From Escherichia coli (GTDB taxonomy: Bacteria; Pseudomonadota; Gammaproteobacteria; Enterobacterales; Enterobacteriaceae), in NCBI RefSeq assembly GCF_003018255.1, contig NZ_CP027440.1: a stretch of DNA of 64,000 nucleotides; one strand, written 5' to 3'. The position numbers and the translations under genes were made by a program. Shown here piece by piece: positions 5,694-63,205 of this stretch; positions within the stretch are counted from its first letter, which is position 1; each line of letters starts with the position of its first letter. Below the pieces are notes generated by a model. It was not told the DNA's origin and did no database searches. It saw only the letters and a program-made list of their open reading frames with translations.

Positions 5694-6014
5694 ATGGGTA
5701 AAACGAACGACTGGCTGGACTTTGATCAACTGGCGGAAGAAAAAGTTCGCGACGCGCTAAAACCGCCATCTATGTATAAAGTGATATTAGTCAATGATGA
5801 TTATACTCCGATGGAGTTTGTTATTGACGTGTTACAAAAATTCTTTTCTTATGATGTAGAACGTGCAACGCAATTGATGCTCGCTGTTCACTACCAGGGG
5901 AAGGCCATTTGCGGAGTCTTTACCGCTGAGGTTGCAGAAACCAAAGTGGCGATGGTGAACAAGTACGCGAGGGAGAATGAGCATCCATTGCTGTGTACGC
6001 TAGAAAAAGCCTGA
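5694..6014 (+). CDS. clpS: ClpA adaptor ClpS
   Basis: 106 aa; immediately upstream of clpA. Confidence 0.95.
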
Positions 6015-6044
6015 ATGCAGGCATAAAAATTGGGGGAGGTGCCT

Positions 6045-8321
6045 ATGCTCAATCAAGAACTGGAACTCAGTTTAAATATGGCTTTCGCCAGAGCGCGCGA
6101 GCACCGTCATGAGTTTATGACCGTCGAGCACTTGTTACTGGCGCTGCTCAGTAACCCATCTGCCCGGGAGGCGCTGGAAGCGTGCTCTGTGGATTTGGTT
6201 GCGCTCCGTCAGGAACTGGAAGCCTTTATTGAACAAACCACACCCGTTCTGCCTGCCAGTGAAGAGGAGCGCGACACACAGCCGACGCTGAGTTTTCAGC
6301 GTGTACTGCAACGTGCGGTCTTCCATGTCCAGTCCTCCGGTCGCAATGAGGTTACCGGTGCAAACGTTCTGGTCGCTATCTTTAGCGAACAGGAGTCGCA
6401 GGCGGCATATCTGTTGCGCAAACATGAAGTCAGCCGTCTCGATGTGGTGAACTTTATCTCTCATGGCACGCGTAAAGACGAGCCGACACAGTCTTCTGAT
6501 CCTGGCAGCCAGCCAAACAGCGAAGAACAAGCTGGTGGGGAGGAACGTATGGAGAATTTCACGACGAACCTGAATCAGCTTGCGCGAGTGGGCGGAATCG
6601 ACCCACTGATTGGTCGTGAGAAGGAGCTGGAGCGTGCTATTCAGGTTCTCTGCCGTCGCCGTAAAAACAACCCGCTGCTGGTGGGGGAATCTGGTGTCGG
6701 TAAAACCGCGATTGCGGAGGGGCTTGCATGGCGAATTGTTCAGGGCGATGTGCCGGAAGTGATGGCTGACTGTACGATTTACTCTCTCGATATCGGTTCT
6801 CTGTTAGCGGGCACAAAATATCGCGGCGACTTTGAAAAACGTTTTAAAGCGTTGCTCAAGCAGCTGGAGCAAGACACTAACAGCATCCTGTTTATTGATG
6901 AGATCCACACCATTATCGGTGCGGGTGCAGCGTCTGGTGGCCAGGTCGATGCAGCTAACCTGATCAAACCGTTGCTCTCCAGCGGTAAAATTCGCGTAAT
7001 TGGTTCGACAACCTATCAGGAGTTCAGCAACATTTTCGAGAAAGACCGTGCTCTGGCGCGTCGCTTCCAGAAAATTGATATTACTGAACCGTCAATCGAA
7101 GAAACTGTTCAAATCATCAATGGCCTGAAACCGAAGTATGAAGCGCACCACGACGTGCGTTATACCGCAAAAGCGGTGCGTGCAGCGGTAGAGCTGGCGG
7201 TGAAATACATTAACGATCGTCATCTGCCGGATAAAGCCATTGACGTTATCGACGAAGCGGGCGCTCGCGCACGCCTGATGCCGGTAAGCAAACGCAAGAA
7301 AACCGTTAATGTGGCGGATATTGAGTCCGTGGTGGCCCGTATTGCGCGCATTCCAGAGAAGAGTGTTTCGCAGAGTGACCGCGATACCCTGAAAAACCTC
7401 GGCGATCGCCTGAAAATGCTGGTCTTCGGTCAGGATAAAGCCATTGAGGCGCTGACTGAAGCCATTAAGATGGCGCGTGCAGGTTTAGGTCACGAACATA
7501 AACCGGTCGGTTCGTTCCTGTTTGCCGGTCCTACCGGGGTCGGGAAAACAGAGGTGACGGTACAGCTTTCGAAAGCGTTGGGCATTGAGCTTCTGCGCTT
7601 TGATATGTCCGAGTATATGGAACGCCATACCGTCAGCCGTCTGATTGGTGCGCCTCCGGGATACGTTGGTTTTGATCAGGGCGGTTTGCTGACTGATGCG
7701 GTCATCAAGCATCCACATGCGGTGCTGCTGCTGGACGAAATCGAGAAAGCGCACCCGGACGTGTTCAATATTCTGTTGCAGGTGATGGACAACGGTACGC
7801 TGACCGATAACAACGGACGCAAAGCGGACTTCCGTAACGTGGTATTGGTGATGACCACCAACGCTGGGGTACGAGAAACTGAGCGTAAATCGATTGGTCT
7901 TATCCACCAGGACAACAGTACCGATGCGATGGAAGAGATCAAGAAGATCTTTACGCCGGAGTTTCGTAACCGTCTCGACAACATTATCTGGTTCGATCAT
8001 CTCTCCACCGACGTGATCCATCAGGTAGTGGATAAATTCATCGTCGAGTTGCAGGTTCAGCTGGATCAGAAAGGTGTTTCTCTGGAAGTGAGCCAGGAAG
8101 CGCGTAACTGGCTGGCCGAGAAAGGTTACGACCGGGCAATGGGCGCACGTCCGATGGCGCGTGTCATCCAGGACAACCTGAAAAAACCGCTCGCCAACGA
8201 ACTGTTGTTTGGTTCGCTGGTGGACGGCGGTCAGGTGACGGTTGCGCTGGATAAAGAGAAAAATGAGCTGACTTATGGATTCCAGAGTGCACAAAAGCAC
8301 AAGGCGGAAGCAGCGCATTAA
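6045..8321 (+). CDS. clpA: ATP-dependent Clp protease ATP-binding subunit ClpA
   Basis: 758 aa from [10 protein letters not shown]; two AAA+ modules with Walker A GESGVGKT and GPTGVGKT. Confidence 0.95.
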
Positions 8322-8344
8322 TCTAATTGTTAGGTAGGTTGGTG

Positions 8345-8380
8345 AAGTCCGTAATCTCGAAAGAGGTTACGGACTTTTTG
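8345..8380 (+). terminator. Rho-independent terminator downstream of clpA
   Basis: Perfect 10-bp stem aagtccgtaa/ttacggactt followed by T tract. Confidence 0.7.
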
Positions 8381-8557
8381 TTTATGGGGTGGAGGAGGTT
8401 CTGACCCTTTTTTTGATGATGATGGTAATTTGTTGATAATTAGTGCTGCGGGAAGGTAAGGATAAAAAAGGGTGGTAGCAGGAAAATGAGATGGTTTTGC
8501 TTTATTAACAACGGGCTAGACGTGTAGTATTTGAGTTCACTGCCGTACAGGCAGATA

Positions 8558-8964
8558 AAATGCGAAAAAAAGCTCGTACTTTCGTACGAGCTCTTCTTTG
8601 AATATGGCGGTGAGGGGGGGATTGACTCGCTTCGCTCGCCCTGCGGGCAGCCCACTCACTGTGTTCGTGGTCTGTCCAACTGGCTGCGCCAGTTGTCGAA
8701 CCCCGGTCGGGGCTTCTCATCCCCCCTGGAGTGCAATATGCGAAAAAAAAGCTCGCACTTTCGTACGAGCTCTTCTTTGAATATGGCGGTGAGGGGGGGG
8801 ATTGACTCGCTTCGCTCGCCCTGCGGGCAGCCCACTCACTGTGTTCGTGGTCTGTCCAACTGGCTGCGCCAGTTGTCGAACCCCGGTCGGGGCTTCTCAT
8901 CCCCCCTGGAGTGCAATATGCGAAAAAAAAAGCTCGCACTTTCGTACGAGCTCTTCTTTGAATA
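8558..8964 (-). repeat. Tandem ~180-bp direct repeat (two full units plus a leading partial unit) downstream of serW; each unit = terminator hairpin + ~115-bp spacer + 19-20 nt copy of the tRNA-Ser 3' end
   Basis: Unit starts at 8605, 8784 and (true tRNA) 8965, periods 179 and 181; near-identical units differing by homopolymer length and one stem base. Confidence 0.85.
8923..8951 (-). terminator. Rho-independent terminator immediately 3' of serW (first of three repeated copies)
   Basis: Minus strand: gctcgtac-gaaa-gtgcgagc hairpin followed by 9 U; copies also at about 8565-8593 and 8744-8772. Confidence 0.8.
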
Positions 8965-9052
8965 TGGCGGTGAGGGGGGGATTCGAACCCCCGATACGTT
9001 GCCGTATACACACTTTCCAGGCGTGCTCCTTCAGCCACTCGGACACCTCACC
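8965..9052 (-). tRNA. serW: tRNA-Ser (GGA anticodon), 88 nt with long variable arm and encoded CCA
   Basis: Reverse complement reads GGTGAGGTGTCCGAGTGGCTGAAGGAGCACGCCTGGAAAGTGTGTATACGGCAACGTATCGGGGGTTCGAATCCCCCCCTCACCGCCA. Confidence 0.9.
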
Positions 9053-9235
9053 AAATTGTTTTGCTACCAAACCTCATGGGTGGCAACGGGGCGCTACTAT
9101 AGGGAGTTGGAGTAAAACGGTCAAGAAGAATTTTAATGATAATTATTGTTTGCTCATACTGTAAACAAGTTGTGCAGTATATCTACATCGAGACAAGTTA
9201 TGGACTTATACTTCCAAAGTACTTCATACATATCA

Positions 9236-9268
9236 CAAAATAAAAAGGCCGGCTAAACCGACCTTTTA
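9236..9268 (-). terminator. Rho-independent terminator downstream of infA
   Basis: Minus strand hairpin GGUCGG-UUUA-GCCGGCC (one GU wobble) followed by U tract. Confidence 0.6.
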
Positions 9269-9305
9269 CTCGTTCTTTCTCTTCGCCCATCAGGCGGTAA
9301 AACAA

Positions 9306-9527
<222 letters not shown>

Positions 9528-9808
9528 ATCCTCTGGGGTATCACTACCGTAATTTGAACCGGCAAGATAATGCCGAAGTTCTGTAAATAAGTAAAGATTT
9601 GCGCGCTAAATCGCAACAAACAGGTTCGGCACATTACTCCGAAAACACACGGCTAAGCCGCACCAAAAGCGCAACGTATAAGGGAGCGGTGAGATAAACG
9701 ATGGGCGTTACCTGACGCGAAAAATTCCTTATCGGCAGCGGGGTAATGAGCGTAACCAACTCTGCGACCGCAATTATAACACTCTGGGGAGAAATGTGCC
9801 GAAAACAT

Positions 9809-10554: not shown

Positions 10555-12276
10555 TTACAAACCCTGCTTAAACTGGTAATAACGCCCCTGTCTGGCAAGC
10601 AGTTCTGCGTGAGTACCTTGCTCAATAATTTGCCCGTTGTCCATCACTATTATTTGTTGGAAACGAGAGAGTCCGCGAAGTCGATGGGTGACCATTAACA
10701 CCGTTTTCTCATGCATCATTTCTGCAAGCAATTCAAGGATCTGACTTTCGGTTGTGGCATCTAAGCCTTCTGTAGGTTCATCCAGCAATACCAGCGGCGC
10801 ATTATGTAACAGCGCACGGGCGATAGCCAGACGGCGTAGTTCACCACCGGAGAGCTGGCGTCCGCCTTCACCCAACCAACTGTTGAGACCTGCATCCTCG
10901 AGCAGCTTCTCCAGACCAACGCGACGTAAGATCTCCGCCAGAGCCTCATCACTACTGCCAGGCGAGGCGAGTAACAGATTATCACGCAGCGTGGCGCTAA
11001 ACAGATGCACTCGCTGAGGAACAACGCTGATGGTCTGTCGTAGAGTCGCTTCATTCAGGCTGGCTATGGGGCTACCGTTAAGCAAAATCTCGCCCTGTTG
11101 CGGGTCCCATGCGCGGGTCAGCAGTTGTAACAGTGTTGATTTGCCGCATCCGGTTCGCCCGAGAATCGCTATATGTTCCCCGGCGTTTACCTGAAGAGAA
11201 ATCCCTTTAAGTGCCTGTTGGGATTGCTCCGGATAATTGAATTGAACATCCCGTAACGTCAGCGAAACGCGATCGGCAACACGAGTTTGGGTATCAGGGA
11301 AGGTGACTTCCGGTTTTTGATCCGTTAAGTCAGTGATCCGTACGGCAGAGGCAATGACTTGCCCCAGATGCTGAAATGCACCCGTTACTGGTGCCAGTGC
11401 TTCAAACGCGGCTAACGCGCAGAAGACAAACAGGGCAATTAACGCGCCGGGTTGAGCATTGCCGCCAACGCCGCCAGACGCCATCCACAGCATCAGGATC
11501 ACCGCTAACGCGCCAATGAGCAGCATTATCGCTTGCGACAATGCGGTGAGTTCAGATTGACGACGTTGCGCTTCCAGCCACTGAATTTCTGTATTCTCTA
11601 ATTGCGTGCGATAACGATCGCTGGCACCAAAGATGGTCAGCTCAGCTTGCCCTTGCAGCCAGGCCGTCAGTTGTTGGCGATACTGCCCGCGAAGATGAGT
11701 CAGATTTTGCCCGGTGCTTTTTCCCGCACGATAAAACAGTGGTGGCATAAGGAAAAGCGTCAGTAACATAATGCCGCCCAGCGTAAAGGCGAGGGTGAAA
11801 TCAAGGAAACTTAACCCGATTGTCACCACCATAATCACCACAAAAGCGCCCACCAGCGGCGAGATAACGCGCAGGTAAAGATGATCGAGCGTATCAACAT
11901 CCGCCACCACGCGGTTGAGCAATTCGCCCTGACGATAGCGCGCCAGTCCGGCAGGGGAGAGGGGCAGCAATTTGCTGAAGGTATAAATGCGCAGATGCTG
12001 CAACACGCGGAAAGTCGCGTCGTGACTTACCAGACGTTCAAAATAGCGCCCGGCAGTACGGGTGATTGCTGCACCACGCACGCCCGCAGCGGGTAGCATA
12101 TAGTTGAAGCTGTACAGTCCGGCAACCCCCGCTACCGCTGAGGCCGAGAGGAACCAGCCGGAAAGTGTCAACAGACCGATACTGGCGAGCAGCGTGACAA
12201 TTGCCAGCACAATACCAAGACTTAACATCCATTTATGACGTTTATACAGTGCCAGATAGGGTAGCAAAGCGCGCAT
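10555..12276 (-). CDS. cydC: Cysteine/glutathione ABC exporter subunit CydC
   Basis: 573 aa; N-terminal TM domain + C-terminal ABC ATPase (GRTGCGKST, LSGGELRR). Confidence 0.9.
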   Translation of the reverse strand: MRALLPYLALYKRHKWMLSLGIVLAIVTLLASIGLLTLSGWFLSASAVAGVAGLYSFNYMLPAAGVRGAAITRTAGRYFERLVSHDATFRVLQHLRIYTFSKLLPLSPAGLARYRQGELLNRVVADVDTLDHLYLRVISPLVGAFVVIMVVTIGLSFLDFTLAFTLGGIMLLTLFLMPPLFYRAGKSTGQNLTHLRGQYRQQLTAWLQGQAELTIFGASDRYRTQLENTEIQWLEAQRRQSELTALSQAIMLLIGALAVILMLWMASGGVGGNAQPGALIALFVFCALAAFEALAPVTGAFQHLGQVIASAVRITDLTDQKPEVTFPDTQTRVADRVSLTLRDVQFNYPEQSQQALKGISLQVNAGEHIAILGRTGCGKSTLLQLLTRAWDPQQGEILLNGSPIASLNEATLRQTISVVPQRVHLFSATLRDNLLLASPGSSDEALAEILRRVGLEKLLEDAGLNSWLGEGGRQLSGGELRRLAIARALLHNAPLVLLDEPTEGLDATTESQILELLAEMMHEKTVLMVTHRLRGLSRFQQIIVMDNGQIIEQGTHAELLARQGRYYQFKQGL

Positions 12277-14043
12277 TTAAATCTCCTCCTGACGATGGGC
12301 CAGTAATGTGGCGAATGGGCCGCCAGCCACACTTAATTCCGCGTAACGTCCTTGCTCAATAATCTGACCATCCTGCATTACCCAAATGACATCCCAGTCA
12401 GCAAGATCTTCTAACTGGTGGGTGACCATTAACGTTGTCTGGCGCAGAGAGGCGGCATTCAGCGCCTCCATTACGCGCTGTTCACTGTGAGCATCAAGGC
12501 TGGCAGCGGGTTCATCCAACAGTAATAGCGAACAGGGATTTAGTAACGCACGGGCCACCGCCACGCGCTGCGCCTGCCCCACGGAAAGGCGGGCAGCCTG
12601 GTCGCCAACAGGCGTATCAACGCCTTGTGGCAGGAGCGGTAGAAACTCACTGACCCAGGCGTTATCCAGCGCTGTTTGTAACTCGTGTTCGCTGGCATCA
12701 GGTCGTGCCAGTAGTACGTTATCCCGTAGTGTTGCTGCCGGTAATTGTGGGTTTTGCCCAACCCAGGAGAGATGCTTACGCCATGATTCCGGTGATAAAT
12801 CGCGTAATTCTATCCCGTTGATTCGTAGCGATCCCTGATATGAGAGAAAACCAGAAAGCGCGTTCAGCAGTGAGCTTTTACCTGAACCGCTGCGACCAAC
12901 CAACACTGCACGTTGGCCTGCTGGCAAAGTAAAGTTCAGCGGTCCAGCCAGCGTTTTACCTTCTGGTGATGTAATAAACAGATCCTCGGCTTCAATGGTC
13001 ACCGGATCGGTTGATGCTAATTCCGCCTCACCACGTTGCGGATGGGCTAGCGGGGTTTCCATAAACGTTTTCAGACTGTCAGCTGCGCCAACAGCCTGGG
13101 CTTTAGCATGATAAAACGTACCGAGATCGCGTAATGGCTGGAAAAACTCCGGCGCAAGGATCAGGGCCAGAAAACCCGCAGCCAGCGTCACGCCAGTATC
13201 ATAGTGACCAAAATCCAGCTCGCCGAGATAGGAAAAACCAAAGTAGACCGCCACCAGAGCAATTGACAGCGAGGTAAAAAATTCGAGAATGCCGGAGGAT
13301 AAAAACGCCAGCCGTAGCACTTCCATTGTCCGTTGGCGGAAATCTTCCGAAGCAGAACGAATACTTTCAATTTCAGCTTCACCACGACCAAAAATACGCA
13401 ATGTTTCCATGCCGCGCAGGCGATCGAGGAAATGCCCACTTAAGCGAGCAAGAGCGAGAAAGTTACGTCGGTTAGCATCGGCAGCCCCCATTCCAACCAG
13501 CGCCATAAACAACGGAATTAACGGTGCAGTGCCCAGCAGAATAAGCGCCGCAGCCCAGTTAGACGGGAAGATCGCCACCACAATCAGCAAAGGCACGGAC
13601 ACTGCCAGCGCCATTTGCGGCAGGTAGCGTGCATAGTAATCATGCATATCGTCAATTTGCTCGAGTACCAGCGTCGCCCAGCTCCCCGCCGGTTTACCCT
13701 GAATCCACGCTGGCCCTGCTTGTTGCAGACGGTCGAGAACCTGACGGCGGATGGCAAAGCGGATATGCTGCCCGGCGTGATAACCCACCCGTTCGCGTAA
13801 CCAGACCACCCATGCGCGCAGTACAAAGGTCAGAACCAGTAACGTAAAGGGAAGCAGCAGGGCTTCACGGGGAATATTCTCCATAATCATATGTTGCAGA
13901 ATTCGCGCCATGAACCAGGCCTGGGCAATGATCAATATGCCGCTCACAAAGCCCAGCAGACGAGAAATATTCAGCCAACGTTGGGAGATGACGCTTTGCT
14001 GTTTTAACCAGCGGGTTAACTCTTTTTGACGGGATTTATTCAT
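12277..14043 (-). CDS. cydD: Cysteine/glutathione ABC exporter subunit CydD
   Basis: 588 aa; ABC motifs [17 protein letters not shown]; directly abuts cydC. Confidence 0.9.
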   Translation of the reverse strand: MNKSRQKELTRWLKQQSVISQRWLNISRLLGFVSGILIIAQAWFMARILQHMIMENIPREALLLPFTLLVLTFVLRAWVVWLRERVGYHAGQHIRFAIRRQVLDRLQQAGPAWIQGKPAGSWATLVLEQIDDMHDYYARYLPQMALAVSVPLLIVVAIFPSNWAAALILLGTAPLIPLFMALVGMGAADANRRNFLALARLSGHFLDRLRGMETLRIFGRGEAEIESIRSASEDFRQRTMEVLRLAFLSSGILEFFTSLSIALVAVYFGFSYLGELDFGHYDTGVTLAAGFLALILAPEFFQPLRDLGTFYHAKAQAVGAADSLKTFMETPLAHPQRGEAELASTDPVTIEAEDLFITSPEGKTLAGPLNFTLPAGQRAVLVGRSGSGKSSLLNALSGFLSYQGSLRINGIELRDLSPESWRKHLSWVGQNPQLPAATLRDNVLLARPDASEHELQTALDNAWVSEFLPLLPQGVDTPVGDQAARLSVGQAQRVAVARALLNPCSLLLLDEPAASLDAHSEQRVMEALNAASLRQTTLMVTHQLEDLADWDVIWVMQDGQIIEQGRYAELSVAGGPFATLLAHRQEEI

Positions 14044-23863: not shown

Positions 23864-23883
23864 TACCCAATTTTTCTGAATCT

Positions 23884-23909
23884 AAAAAGCGCCTGCGGGC
23901 GCTTTTTTT
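23884..23909 (+). terminator. Rho-independent terminator downstream of serS
   Basis: agcgcc-tgcg-ggcgct hairpin followed by 7 T. Confidence 0.8.
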
Positions 23910-24101
23910 GTCTCCCTTTGATACCGAACAATAATTACTCCTCACTTACACGTAATACTACTTTCGAGTGAAAATCTACCTATCTCTTTGATTTTCAAAT
24001 TATTCGATGTATACAAGCCTATATAGCGAACTGCTATAGAAATAATTACACAATACGGTTTGTTACTGGAATCAATCGTGAGCAAGCTTGAGTGAGCCAT
24101 T

Positions 24102-62490: not shown

Positions 62491-63205
62491 GTGCACAGAA
62501 AACCCCCAGCTAGGCTGGGGGTTCCGGAAAGCTTTCAGCTTTGAGCCAGTTATTAAAACCCCTTTTGATTTGTTAAAACACCTTGCGGTCTGGCAACTGC
62601 AAGTGTCAAACAAGAAATCAAAAGGGGGTCCCAATGGGGAACGAAAAGAGCTTAGCGCACACCCGATGGAACTGTAAATATCACATAGTTTTTGCGCCAA
62701 AATACCGAAGACAAGTGTTCTACAGAGAGAAGCGTAGAGCAATAGGCAGTATTTTGAGAAAGCTGTGTGAGTGGAAAAGCGTACGGATTCTTGAAGCTGA
62801 ATGCTGTGCAGATCATATCCATATGCTTGTGGAGATCCCGCCCAAAATGAGTGTATCCGGCTTTATGGGATATCTGAAAGGGAAAAGCAGTCTGATGCTT
62901 TACGAGCAGTTTGGTGATTTGAAATTCAAATACAGGAACAGAGAGTTCTGGTGCAGAGGGTACTACGTCGATACGGTGGGTAAGAACACGGCGAAGATAC
63001 AGGATTACATAAAGCACCAGCTTGAAGAGGATAAAATGGGAGAGCAGTTATCGATTCCCTATCCGGGCAGCCCGTTTACGGGCCGTAAGTAACGAAGTTG
63101 GATGCAAATGTCAGATCGTGTGCGCCTGTTAGGGCGCGGCTGGTAAGAGAGCCTTATAGGCGCATTTGAAAAACCTCCGGCTATGCCGGAGGATATTTAT
63201 TTTCC
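62490..63205 (+). mobile_element. IS200-family (IS200/IS605 superfamily) insertion sequence, ~710 bp; ends approximate (about +/-15 bp)
   Basis: Single Y1 HuH transposase ORF flanked by left-end hairpin cccccag-ctagg-ctggggg and right-end hairpin cctccggctatgccggagg; no tnpB; mukB-ldtD spacer is ~710 bp longer than recalled for K-12. Confidence 0.8.
62634..63092 (+). CDS. tnpA: IS200 Y1-type transposase TnpA
   Basis: 152 aa from MGNEKSLAHTRWNCKYHIVFAPKYRR; HuH-like HIHMLV motif; ORF-track TTG start at 62583 trimmed to ATG 62634. Confidence 0.85.
   Translation: MGNEKSLAHTRWNCKYHIVFAPKYRRQVFYREKRRAIGSILRKLCEWKSVRILEAECCADHIHMLVEIPPKMSVSGFMGYLKGKSSLMLYEQFGDLKFKYRNREFWCRGYYVDTVGKNTAKIQDYIKHQLEEDKMGEQLSIPYPGSPFTGRK

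Follow-up and report, generated by a model that had tools for sequence, protein, structure and literature searches.

Two tandem tRNA-linked repeats of the RtT family behind serW in Escherichia coli, and their copy-number variation among strains

The locus considered here lies in a 64,000-nt stretch of the Escherichia coli contig NZ_CP027440.1 (assembly GCF_003018255.1; hereinafter the window, to which all coordinates refer) and consists of a short tandem array in the spacer between clpA and a serine tRNA gene. In the list of open reading frames (ORFs), clpS and clpA are on the plus strand, with the end of ClpA at 8321, and infA (9306–9524), aat, and cydC are on the minus strand. The tRNA-Ser(GGA) gene between these two groups is taken to be serW because it is placed between clpA and infA (the synteny clpA-serW-infA). 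Read on the tRNA strand, serW is followed by its trailer and terminator and then by two repeat units of 181 and 179 bp, each of which joins a GC-rich core to duplicates of the tRNA 3′ end and of the trailer with its terminator. We refer to the units as tRNA-linked repeats (TLRs), or RtT units after the corresponding Rfam family. From the upstream side of the tRNA gene toward clpA, the features are:

9096–9124, minus strand: promoter-like site TTGACC-17 nt-TATAGT upstream of serW (consensus scan)
8965–9052, minus strand: tRNA-Ser(GGA), serW (ARAGORN, anticodon GGA; Rfam tRNA model, 53.8 bits; flanked by the ClpA and InfA ORFs)
8921–8964, minus strand: serW 3′ trailer and intrinsic terminator T1 (16-bp hairpin, GAAA loop, U9; −21.4 kcal/mol, z = −5.4)
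8784–8920, minus strand: TLR/RtT unit 1, tRNA-proximal (Rfam RtT RF00391, 41.4 bits, E = 3.3e-6; predicted fold)
8742–8783, minus strand: second trailer and terminator copy, T2 (U8; −21.5 kcal/mol; inside the repeat copy 8744–8802)
8605–8741, minus strand: TLR/RtT unit 2, clpA-proximal (Rfam RtT, 45.1 bits; exact 19-nt copy of the tRNA 3′ end at 8605–8623)
8560–8604, minus strand: third trailer and terminator copy, T3 (perfect stem, U7; −20.6 kcal/mol; terminator scan; end of the array)

The units begin 45 nt past serW, on the same strand and with no other gene in between, which is the position expected of a TLR. Tandem Repeats Finder reports a period of 180 bp, 2.4 copies, and 97% matches over 8560–8983, and a repeat search resolves this into a 59-nt module (the last 19 nt of serW, the trailer, and the hairpin terminator) that occurs three times, at 8565–8623, 8744–8802, and 8925–8983, with spacings of 179 and 181 bp. 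Two stretches of 137 nt (8614–8750 and 8794–8930) are 100% identical, as are the cores of units 1 and 2, which measure about 120 nt (117–121 nt between the tRNA 3′-end copies). The 19-mer TGGCGGTGAGGGGGGGATT (the reverse complement of AATCCCCCCCTCACCGCCA) is exact at 8605–8623 and at 8965–8983 in the tRNA gene itself, with a chance expectation of 0; the middle copy, 8784–8803, is 20 nt long and ends in CCA, with one extra base (G; C on the tRNA strand) in a homopolymer run. The copies thus have the 18–19-bp identity to the tRNA 3′ end that is characteristic of TLRs, exactly in unit 2 and with one additional homopolymer base in unit 1. Differences among the copies are confined to homopolymer length (A7/A8/A9, G7/G8) and one stem base (T versus C). 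The terminator hairpins of the three modules have stems of 15–17 bp, folding energies between −20.6 and −21.5 kcal/mol, and a run of 7–9 U behind them. The original prediction, a reading of the bare letters of the window, had described this anatomy of a tRNA and terminator followed by units of spacer, tRNA 3′ 19-mer, and terminator; it holds at the positions given there, as do the unit lengths of 179 and 181 bp and the limitation of the differences to homopolymers and a single stem base. The hairpin caactgg-cgcag-ccagttg that it had singled out is likewise present in the predicted fold. We also observed that each of the terminators at 8565–8604, 8742–8783, and 8921–8964 is bordered by an A-rich tract and, on the opposite side, by a U-tract, so that transcripts coming from clpA could be ended there as well, although clpA has a terminator of its own (8344–8377).

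The repeats had been left unnamed in the original prediction, but they belong to a named family that RefSeq labels at the same position in other strains, and an array of the same type stands behind serX in K-12. The comparison with Rfam and with the tyrT repeats proposed there was carried out with the Rfam models over 8000–9600, together with a whole-window search at gathering scores (45 bits for RtT). The RtT model RF00391 matched both cores: unit 2, at 45.1 bits, passes the gathering score, also in the whole-window search, and unit 1, at 41.4 bits, falls below 45, its lower score going with one extra C relative to unit 2. Other Rfam matches over the interval (sX4 at 33.5 bits, Thr_leader, MicC, Plastid-psbI-rps4, MIR9486) were rejected as far below their gathering scores; they arise from the tRNA, from the terminator hairpins, or, for sX4, from a model that itself holds a tRNA-Ser and the start of a TLR. 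The label "RtT sRNA" has already been applied by the Prokaryotic Genome Annotation Pipeline (PGAP) of RefSeq to the clpA-serW spacer of other E. coli genomes, BL21 among them. By their sequence, then, the serW repeats are members of a curated family, the tRNA-linked repeats or RtT RNA, known since 1978. As recounted in a later paper, the first description of TLRs is that of Egan and Landy in 1978, and the catalogue of Rudd in 1999 lists 22 of them in K-12, spread over ten loci that each have one to five (PMC8144298). Their hallmark is a 3′-terminal stretch of 18–19 bp in which the last bases of the preceding tRNA or rRNA gene recur without change; a phenotype reported earlier for the tyrT TLR has been retracted, and the tRNA-linked TLRs have no known function (PMC8144298). 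We assume that serX is among Rudd's ten loci, on the basis of its anatomy and the PGAP RtT label; our literature search turned up no paper joining serX and RtT.

Relatedness to the catalogued K-12 copies is evident at two levels, namely 93–95% identity to the serX units and an alignment with the tyrT and tyrV units. The class of cores matching at 90–95% maps in K-12 to about 1.097 Mb, behind serX, where an array of 3.4 units with a period of 181 and the same layout scores 46.3, 46.3, and 36.1 bits with the RtT model; the serW core is 93.3% identical to the K-12 copy. The two arrays share an identical tRNA-Ser(GGA), the order of tRNA, terminator, and then core, 19-nt copy, and terminator, cores at 93–95% identity, and borderline RtT scores. 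They differ in context (the serX array lies in the ycdU-serX spacer, on the ghrA/ycdU side, as against clpA/infA for serW), in extent (3.4 units with a partial terminal unit as against exactly two flush-ending units), and in period (181 as against 179/181). Furthermore, 1-nt indels in hairpin loops separate the serX and serW units, and the latter form a lineage of their own: the examined E. coli serW units share 97.7–100% identity with one another, 96% with those behind serW in Citrobacter sp. R56, and 92–95% with the serX units of E. coli and E. albertii. These values suggest an old array that was repeatedly lost rather than a recent serX copy, a view we hold loosely as the margin is only a few bases. 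A recent copying from serX within the species is unsupported, since the examined E. coli serW units group with one another, and their identity to the Citrobacter serW units (96%) is no lower than that to the E. coli serX units (92–95%).

The resemblance to the tyrT locus, which the original prediction had put as a mirroring of the classical 178-bp units (Egan and Landy 1978; Bosl and Kersten 1991), turned out to be true homology: the tyrT-based RtT model matches both serW units, and the units can be aligned with those of tyrT and tyrV in their first ~50 nt and at their 3′ ends, with the common motifs GGATGAGAAGC..CGACC..GGTTCGA and CCCG.AGGGCGA. At tyrT and tyrV, too, tandem units of ~180 bp (178 bp at tyrT) each end in the last 19 nt of the upstream tRNA, and they have a closing helix whose 5′ strand is complementary to the T-stem and acceptor 3′ strand. 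There are also differences. The four RtT matches at K-12 tyrT score 133–138 bits as against 41–45 for serW, and the middle of the core differs. A reading of the tyrT trailer, with no terminator scan run, revealed none of the GC-rich hairpins with a U-run that follow every serW unit. Termination at tyrT is Rho-dependent. Moreover, a 171-nt rtT RNA (rttR) has been detected from tyrT, whereas the serW units are known here from sequence. The best mechanistic precedent is provided by the elements RrA, RrB, and RrF (rrnA, rrnB, rrnD, between T1 and T2), which likewise comprise a gene 3′ end, a terminator, a core, an 18-nt copy, and a second terminator, but are single units linked to 5S rRNA rather than to a tRNA. 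Their GGA motifs bind CsrA and Hfq in vitro, and the 19 tRNA-linked TLRs of K-12 score <0.01 in a predictor of CsrA binding (PMC8144298). A further relative is sX4 of Xanthomonas (Rfam RF02223), whose model consists of a tRNA-Ser and ~60 nt downstream, ending in GGGGGGUGAGA, the start of a TLR-like module; it differs in that the family definition takes in the tRNA and in coming from bacteria of a different order. The sX4 model attains 106–108 bits at two loci in Stenotrophomonas (5879–6086 and 12264–12435), where the TLR pattern also matches; in the window it reaches 33.5 bits at 8895–9071 (minus strand; gathering score 70), a match driven by the tRNA.

The serW array is polymorphic within E. 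coli, a point on which the original prediction had made its own refutation depend. A megablast search with 8250–9130 against 5,426 complete E. coli genomes found the locus in 5,425, and the RefSeq features under the match in repeat-bearing strains are RtT sRNA, tRNA-Ser, and clpA. A junction query made up of the unique flank, the terminator, and the start of the core (8480–8680) was covered at the threshold of at least 80% in 1,027 of the 5,426 genomes (18.9%), including BL21, which has serW units where K-12 has none. The 117-nt core itself has a match of at least 95% identity in 1,032 genomes, only a 90–95% match in 2,322, and no match in 2,059. A count of units across strains, as suggested in the original prediction, gives 0 in most genomes and 1, 2, or 3 in the carriers examined:

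K-12-type strain: gap between the clpA stop and serW of 343 nt, 0 units
2018-11-1BCC: gap of 522 nt, 1 unit
LCP30S3_I5: gap of 523 nt, 1 unit
The window: gap of 643 nt, 2 units
20Ec-P-124: gap of 703 nt, 2 units
YDC107: gap of 878 nt, 3 units

An alignment of K-12-type, one-unit, and two-unit strains with the window shows that the repeat-linked length differences are whole units, and the end of the array at T3 is flush with the sequence that flanks the single K-12 terminator, a configuration that fits recombination between repeats. The statement in the original prediction that the K-12 clpA-serW spacer is ~0.3 kb shorter was accurate (343 nt as against 643 nt). Its reading of this difference as copy-number expansion stands insofar as the window has two units and K-12 zero, but not as a simple count, for the 300 nt correspond to two units minus a 60-bp deletion: the window is 300 rather than 360 nt longer than K-12 because 60 bp, a repeat and spacer of a CRISPR (clustered regularly interspaced short palindromic repeats) element, are missing elsewhere in the spacer. 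The serW array thereby accounts for a common length polymorphism of the clpA-serW-infA spacer.

The CRISPR element in question is a single type I-F-like repeat at 8535–8562 (plus strand), between clpA and the array (GTTCACTGCCGTACAGGCAG + ATAAAATG; Rfam CRISPR-DR4, 29.7 bits; exact 20-mer). At this site a 32-nt spacer, different in each strain, lies between two repeats in K-12 and in two further strains; the window has one hybrid repeat and 60 bp fewer, which is consistent with a putative deletion by recombination between the two repeats. We take this to be the CRISPR4 remnant that the clpA-serW-infA spacer holds and that is used in E. coli typing. As an identity for the 180-bp units themselves, a CRISPR array was rejected: they lack repeats of ~28 nt alternating with unique spacers of similar length, and the remnant sits outside the array.

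On the tRNA strand the core comprises a G-run followed by GGAUGAGAAGC, a hairpin CCCC-GACC-GGGG leading into UUCGA, two further hairpins, and then CGAGUCAAUCCCCCCCUCACCGCCA. In the predicted closing helix the 5′ G-run pairs with the C-run of the tRNA-derived tail; as modeled, the G-run can fold with the copied 3′ strand of the T-stem and with the first part of the acceptor 3′ strand, while the terminal ...CACCGCCA stays single-stranded. The predicted energy of a complete 180-nt unit is −77.1 kcal/mol (z = −4.7); for the 128-nt core alone, z = −2.5. Across the family, the strands of the two helices match the type of the linked tRNA:

Tyr-linked units: 5′ strand GGGGAAGG, tail CCUUCCCC, inner hairpin CUU/AAG
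Ser-GGA-linked units: 5′ strand GGGGGG(G), tail CCCCCCC, inner hairpin CCC/GGG
Ser-GGA with the T-stem CCCUC (Photorhabdus, Tenebrionibacter): 5′ strand GGGAGGG, tail CCCUCCC, inner hairpin CCCU/AGGG
Ser-GCT (Pseudoalteromonas): 5′ strand GAAGGAGGG, tail CCCUCCUUC, inner hairpin CCCU/AGGG

A Ser-GCT unit of Mariprofundus also fits this pattern, and a Phe unit of Sessilibacter does so in part. In each case the T-arm of the linked tRNA is copied in the tail and in the 3′ half of the inner hairpin, to which the 5′ strand and the 5′ half of that hairpin, respectively, are complementary. In an alignment of 43 distinct units (Tyr, Ser-GGA with two T-stem variants, and Ser-GCT), anchored by us on invariant motifs, 83.5% of the cells pair, and all measures are best at slide 0. 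For the two-helix structure, double-sided changes number 33 cells as against 12.6 ± 3.5 in column shuffles, with none of 500 shuffles reaching 33, and five of the eight pairs of the closing helix (columns 5–12 with 43–50) show them. Covariation in RtT has been published (PMC7657543), and the result from the 43 units agrees both with it and with the consensus helix of Rfam. That the core changes in step with the T-arm of the neighboring tRNA supports, at the level of sequence, a conserved RNA fold. In the same units the base preceding the invariant TGAGAA (column 13; 8900 and 8720 on the minus strand in the window) is A, G, or T but never C; this yields ATG, GTG, or TTG and coincides with the start codon of K-12 tpr, a regularity that, given the few independent lineages, may be due to chance.

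As to expression, a consensus scan found no sigma-70-like promoter inside either unit, and the only candidate that could drive the repeats is the site upstream of serW. Because the units have no promoter within them, we propose that their cores would be transcribed only through read-through of the serW terminator, by analogy with RtT at tyrT and RrB at rrnB. The read-through transcript may then be cut after each copy of the CCA and trailer by the enzymes of tRNA 3′ maturation and trimmed to CCA, such that cleavage in each repeated trailer would release RNAs of ~180 nt. For the analogous RrA, RrB, and RrF, which are TLRs behind the rrn terminator T1, read-through is documented, and the 3′-end repeat has been proposed to guide an RNase E cut of the 5S type (PMC8144298). 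In Xanthomonas, sX4 appeared on Northern blots at 280–300 nt as against 156 nt expected (PMC3300014), and we note that this band is about the size of a tRNA, a spacer, and one TLR; by analogy, the sX4 model and its band may lend weak, indirect support to TLR read-through. The array would in turn grow and shrink by unequal homologous recombination or slippage between the identical repeats of 59–180 nt, which could account for the series of 0–3 units and the variable homopolymer runs, and the loss of every unit would leave the K-12 state. The roles floated in the original prediction, namely a reiterated terminator, an unequal-crossover hotspot, a decoy for 3′ processing or attachment, and a small structured RNA, would be candidates only.

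Accordingly, we consider it highly probable that the interval is a two-TLR (RtT) array on serW, a paralogue of the serX array, made of non-coding modules that would be transcribed by read-through, would share 3′ processing with the tRNA, and would change in copy number by recombination. The family identity, the layout, the homology, the polymorphism in presence and copy number, and the covariation between core and T-arm are the parts of this reading that were directly demonstrated. Several observations weigh against it. Each unit is preceded by a strong terminator (~−21 kcal/mol, U7–U9), hence read-through may be negligible and the units silent DNA. The array is dispensable, as ~81% of E. coli lack it at serW and 2059/5426 genomes have no megablast match to the core anywhere. 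The RtT score of unit 1 is 41.4 against a gathering score of 45, and the long-range helix UUCG:CGAA of the Rfam model is mismatched in the Ser type. Lastly, the number of independent tRNA types behind the covariation is small, tRNA copies make up two of the four covarying segments, and the alignment was anchored by the author.

The main alternative, which we regard as possible though on balance unlikely, is that the units are a neutral or selfish, untranscribed minisatellite, maintained only by duplication and by gene conversion with the 3′ end of the neighboring tRNA and with its terminator. The strong terminators and the want of an internal promoter favor it, as does the distribution, with ~81% of E. 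coli lacking the array at serW and 38% lacking any copy of the core. The 137-nt stretch of 100% identity is what recent duplication or homogenization would be expected to produce, and TLRs have gone without a proven function since 1978, the sole claimed phenotype having been retracted (PMC8144298). Against it, the 5′ strand and the inner hairpin, for which there is no tRNA template in the same orientation, still track the T-arm in the Tyr, Ser-GGA, CCCTC-variant, and Ser-GCT types, and a module with the same motif extends from Enterobacteriaceae to Pseudoalteromonas, Stenotrophomonas, and Mariprofundus; moreover, the TLRs of the rrn operons are expressed, and in vitro they bind Hfq and CsrA (PMC8144298). 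We find it improbable that the units are extra or decoy bacterial attachment sites (attB) for the P4-family integrases of serW/serX islands (SRL-PAI, O-islands 43/48), or that such integrases drive their gain and loss. Each island is bordered by direct repeats of 14 bp, TGGCGGTGAGGGGG, the same sequence in which serW/serX end (PMC3064760), and this 14-mer occurs three times in the window, in the tRNA and in each unit; the island repeats (attL/attR) are thus likewise extra downstream copies of the tRNA 3′ end. In contrast to those, the serW copies enclose neither an integrase nor island DNA, only a conserved structured core of 120 nt; the duplication takes in the trailer and terminator as well, and elements of the same build stand behind other tRNAs and rRNAs. 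With TLRs so built behind tyrT/tyrV and the 5S rRNA genes (PMC8144298), an integrase of serW/serX would leave the family unexplained. Upstream of the 19-mer the units read GAGTC where the tRNA has GGTTCG, so that half of a T-arm-type integrase site is missing. Arrays that seemed to be interrupted by 3–6 kb (Enterobacter, Klebsiella, Pluralibacter, and others) proved to be two tRNA-Ser(GGA) genes, each with its own units, and no island bounded by TLR copies was found in a non-exhaustive search. A remnant of an attL/attR pair was rejected as well, as only the RtT core and terminator lie between the copies, with no credible protein-coding ORF.

A coding role, in which the repeats would specify a homologue of the Tpr peptide of the tyrT locus or one of the 'hypothetical proteins' of PGAP, is very unlikely. 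The motif GGATGAGAAGC does hold the ATG of K-12 tpr (MRSFDQGST...), and the same serW frame starts MRSPDRGST...; ORFs of 177 aa (8505–9038, minus strand) and 194 aa (8531–9115, plus strand) span the array, and PGAP places a hypothetical protein over the repeats in some strains (e.g., WP_012602745.1; TC_EC10, locus 661–1059). Yet the long ORFs cross the tRNA gene and exist only because the ~180-nt units are free of stops, which makes them artefacts of the repeats. A 1-nt indel after codon 11 splits the serW and serX frames, the K-12 serX frame stopping after 18 codons, and since the period (179/181 here, 181 in K-12) is not a multiple of three, the frame is lost from unit to unit. At codons 4 and 6 the Tyr and Ser types differ by non-synonymous changes that nevertheless keep the base pairing, and the G-rich stretch that abuts the ATG leaves no room for the spacing of a ribosome-binding site. 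Least probable of all is an error of assembly, in which one terminator region would have been wrongly expanded into the extra units: near-identical 180-bp tandem repeats with homopolymer runs are error-prone, but the independent complete genome 20Ec-P-124 has the same two-unit array at 99.6% identity, one- and three-unit versions exist in other genomes, and the junction recurs in 1027 complete genomes. The proper annotation of the interval is therefore two tRNA-linked repeats of the RtT family, neither a new element nor a 'hypothetical protein.' As a finding the serW array is correct but ordinary; its copy series and tRNA-matched covariation are useful handles, though not new in kind. A natural series of 0, 1, 2, and 3 copies at a syntenic locus, combined with that covariation, offers a concrete start for experiments, a modest convenience rather than a discovery.

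A bolder proposal, of which we are quite doubtful, is that TLR/RtT modules are functional mimics of the acceptor/T-arm minihelix, tailored to the preceding tRNA and kept by selection. It draws on the complementarity of the 5′ strand to the T-stem 3′ strand and the first acceptor bases, and on the inner hairpin, which repeats the T-stem 5′ strand and UUCGA. This pattern is present in the Tyr, Ser-GGA, T-stem-variant, and Ser-GCT types and partially in the Phe and Mariprofundus Ser-GCT units, in hosts from Enterobacteriaceae to Pseudoalteromonas, Sessilibacter, and Mariprofundus. Were the proposal correct, the mimic RNAs released from read-through transcripts could engage the enzymes that mature the cognate tRNA or control its quality (RNase E, RNase P, 3′ exonucleases, and the CCA-adding enzyme), or alternatively could pair with the 5′ acceptor strand of the tRNA. 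A TLR RNA would then be a tRNA-specific decoy or a sensor of terminator read-through, its activity tuned by the 0–3 copies at serW.

The spread beyond E. coli was surveyed by a pattern scan of one genome per species, from which taxonomic presence, but no frequencies, was read from the matches listed. Among these, the TLR module occurs behind tRNA-Ser(GGA) in many Enterobacteriaceae, mostly beside ghrA (the serX context), and beside clpA/infA in Citrobacter, Salmonella enterica subsp. diarizonae, and an Escherichia sp.; a module with the same motif extends, again among the matches listed, from Enterobacteriaceae to Pseudoalteromonas, Stenotrophomonas, and Mariprofundus, and about 20 of those listed fall inside apparent coding sequence in unrelated taxa and are attributable to chance. 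The RtT model recognizes distant examples (Mariprofundus, 58 bits; Photorhabdus, 57 and 53; Pseudoalteromonas, 44.6), hence this breadth lies within the known family. In several genera of Enterobacteriaceae, two tRNA-Ser(GGA) genes lie ~3–6 kb apart beside ghrA, each with one to three TLR units. Some array-terminal units (Enterobacter, Pseudenterobacter, Trabulsiella) end in AATCCCCCCCGG(T/C/A)GCCA rather than in the tRNA-Ser tail CCCCCCCTCACCGCCA, and such ends may be the tail of another tRNA or mark a point of recombination. Elsewhere in the window, two sRNA families common in enterobacteria pass their Rfam gathering scores, namely STnc490 (146 bits) at 62501–62624 on the plus strand and STnc130 (140 bits) at 23877–24011 on the minus strand.

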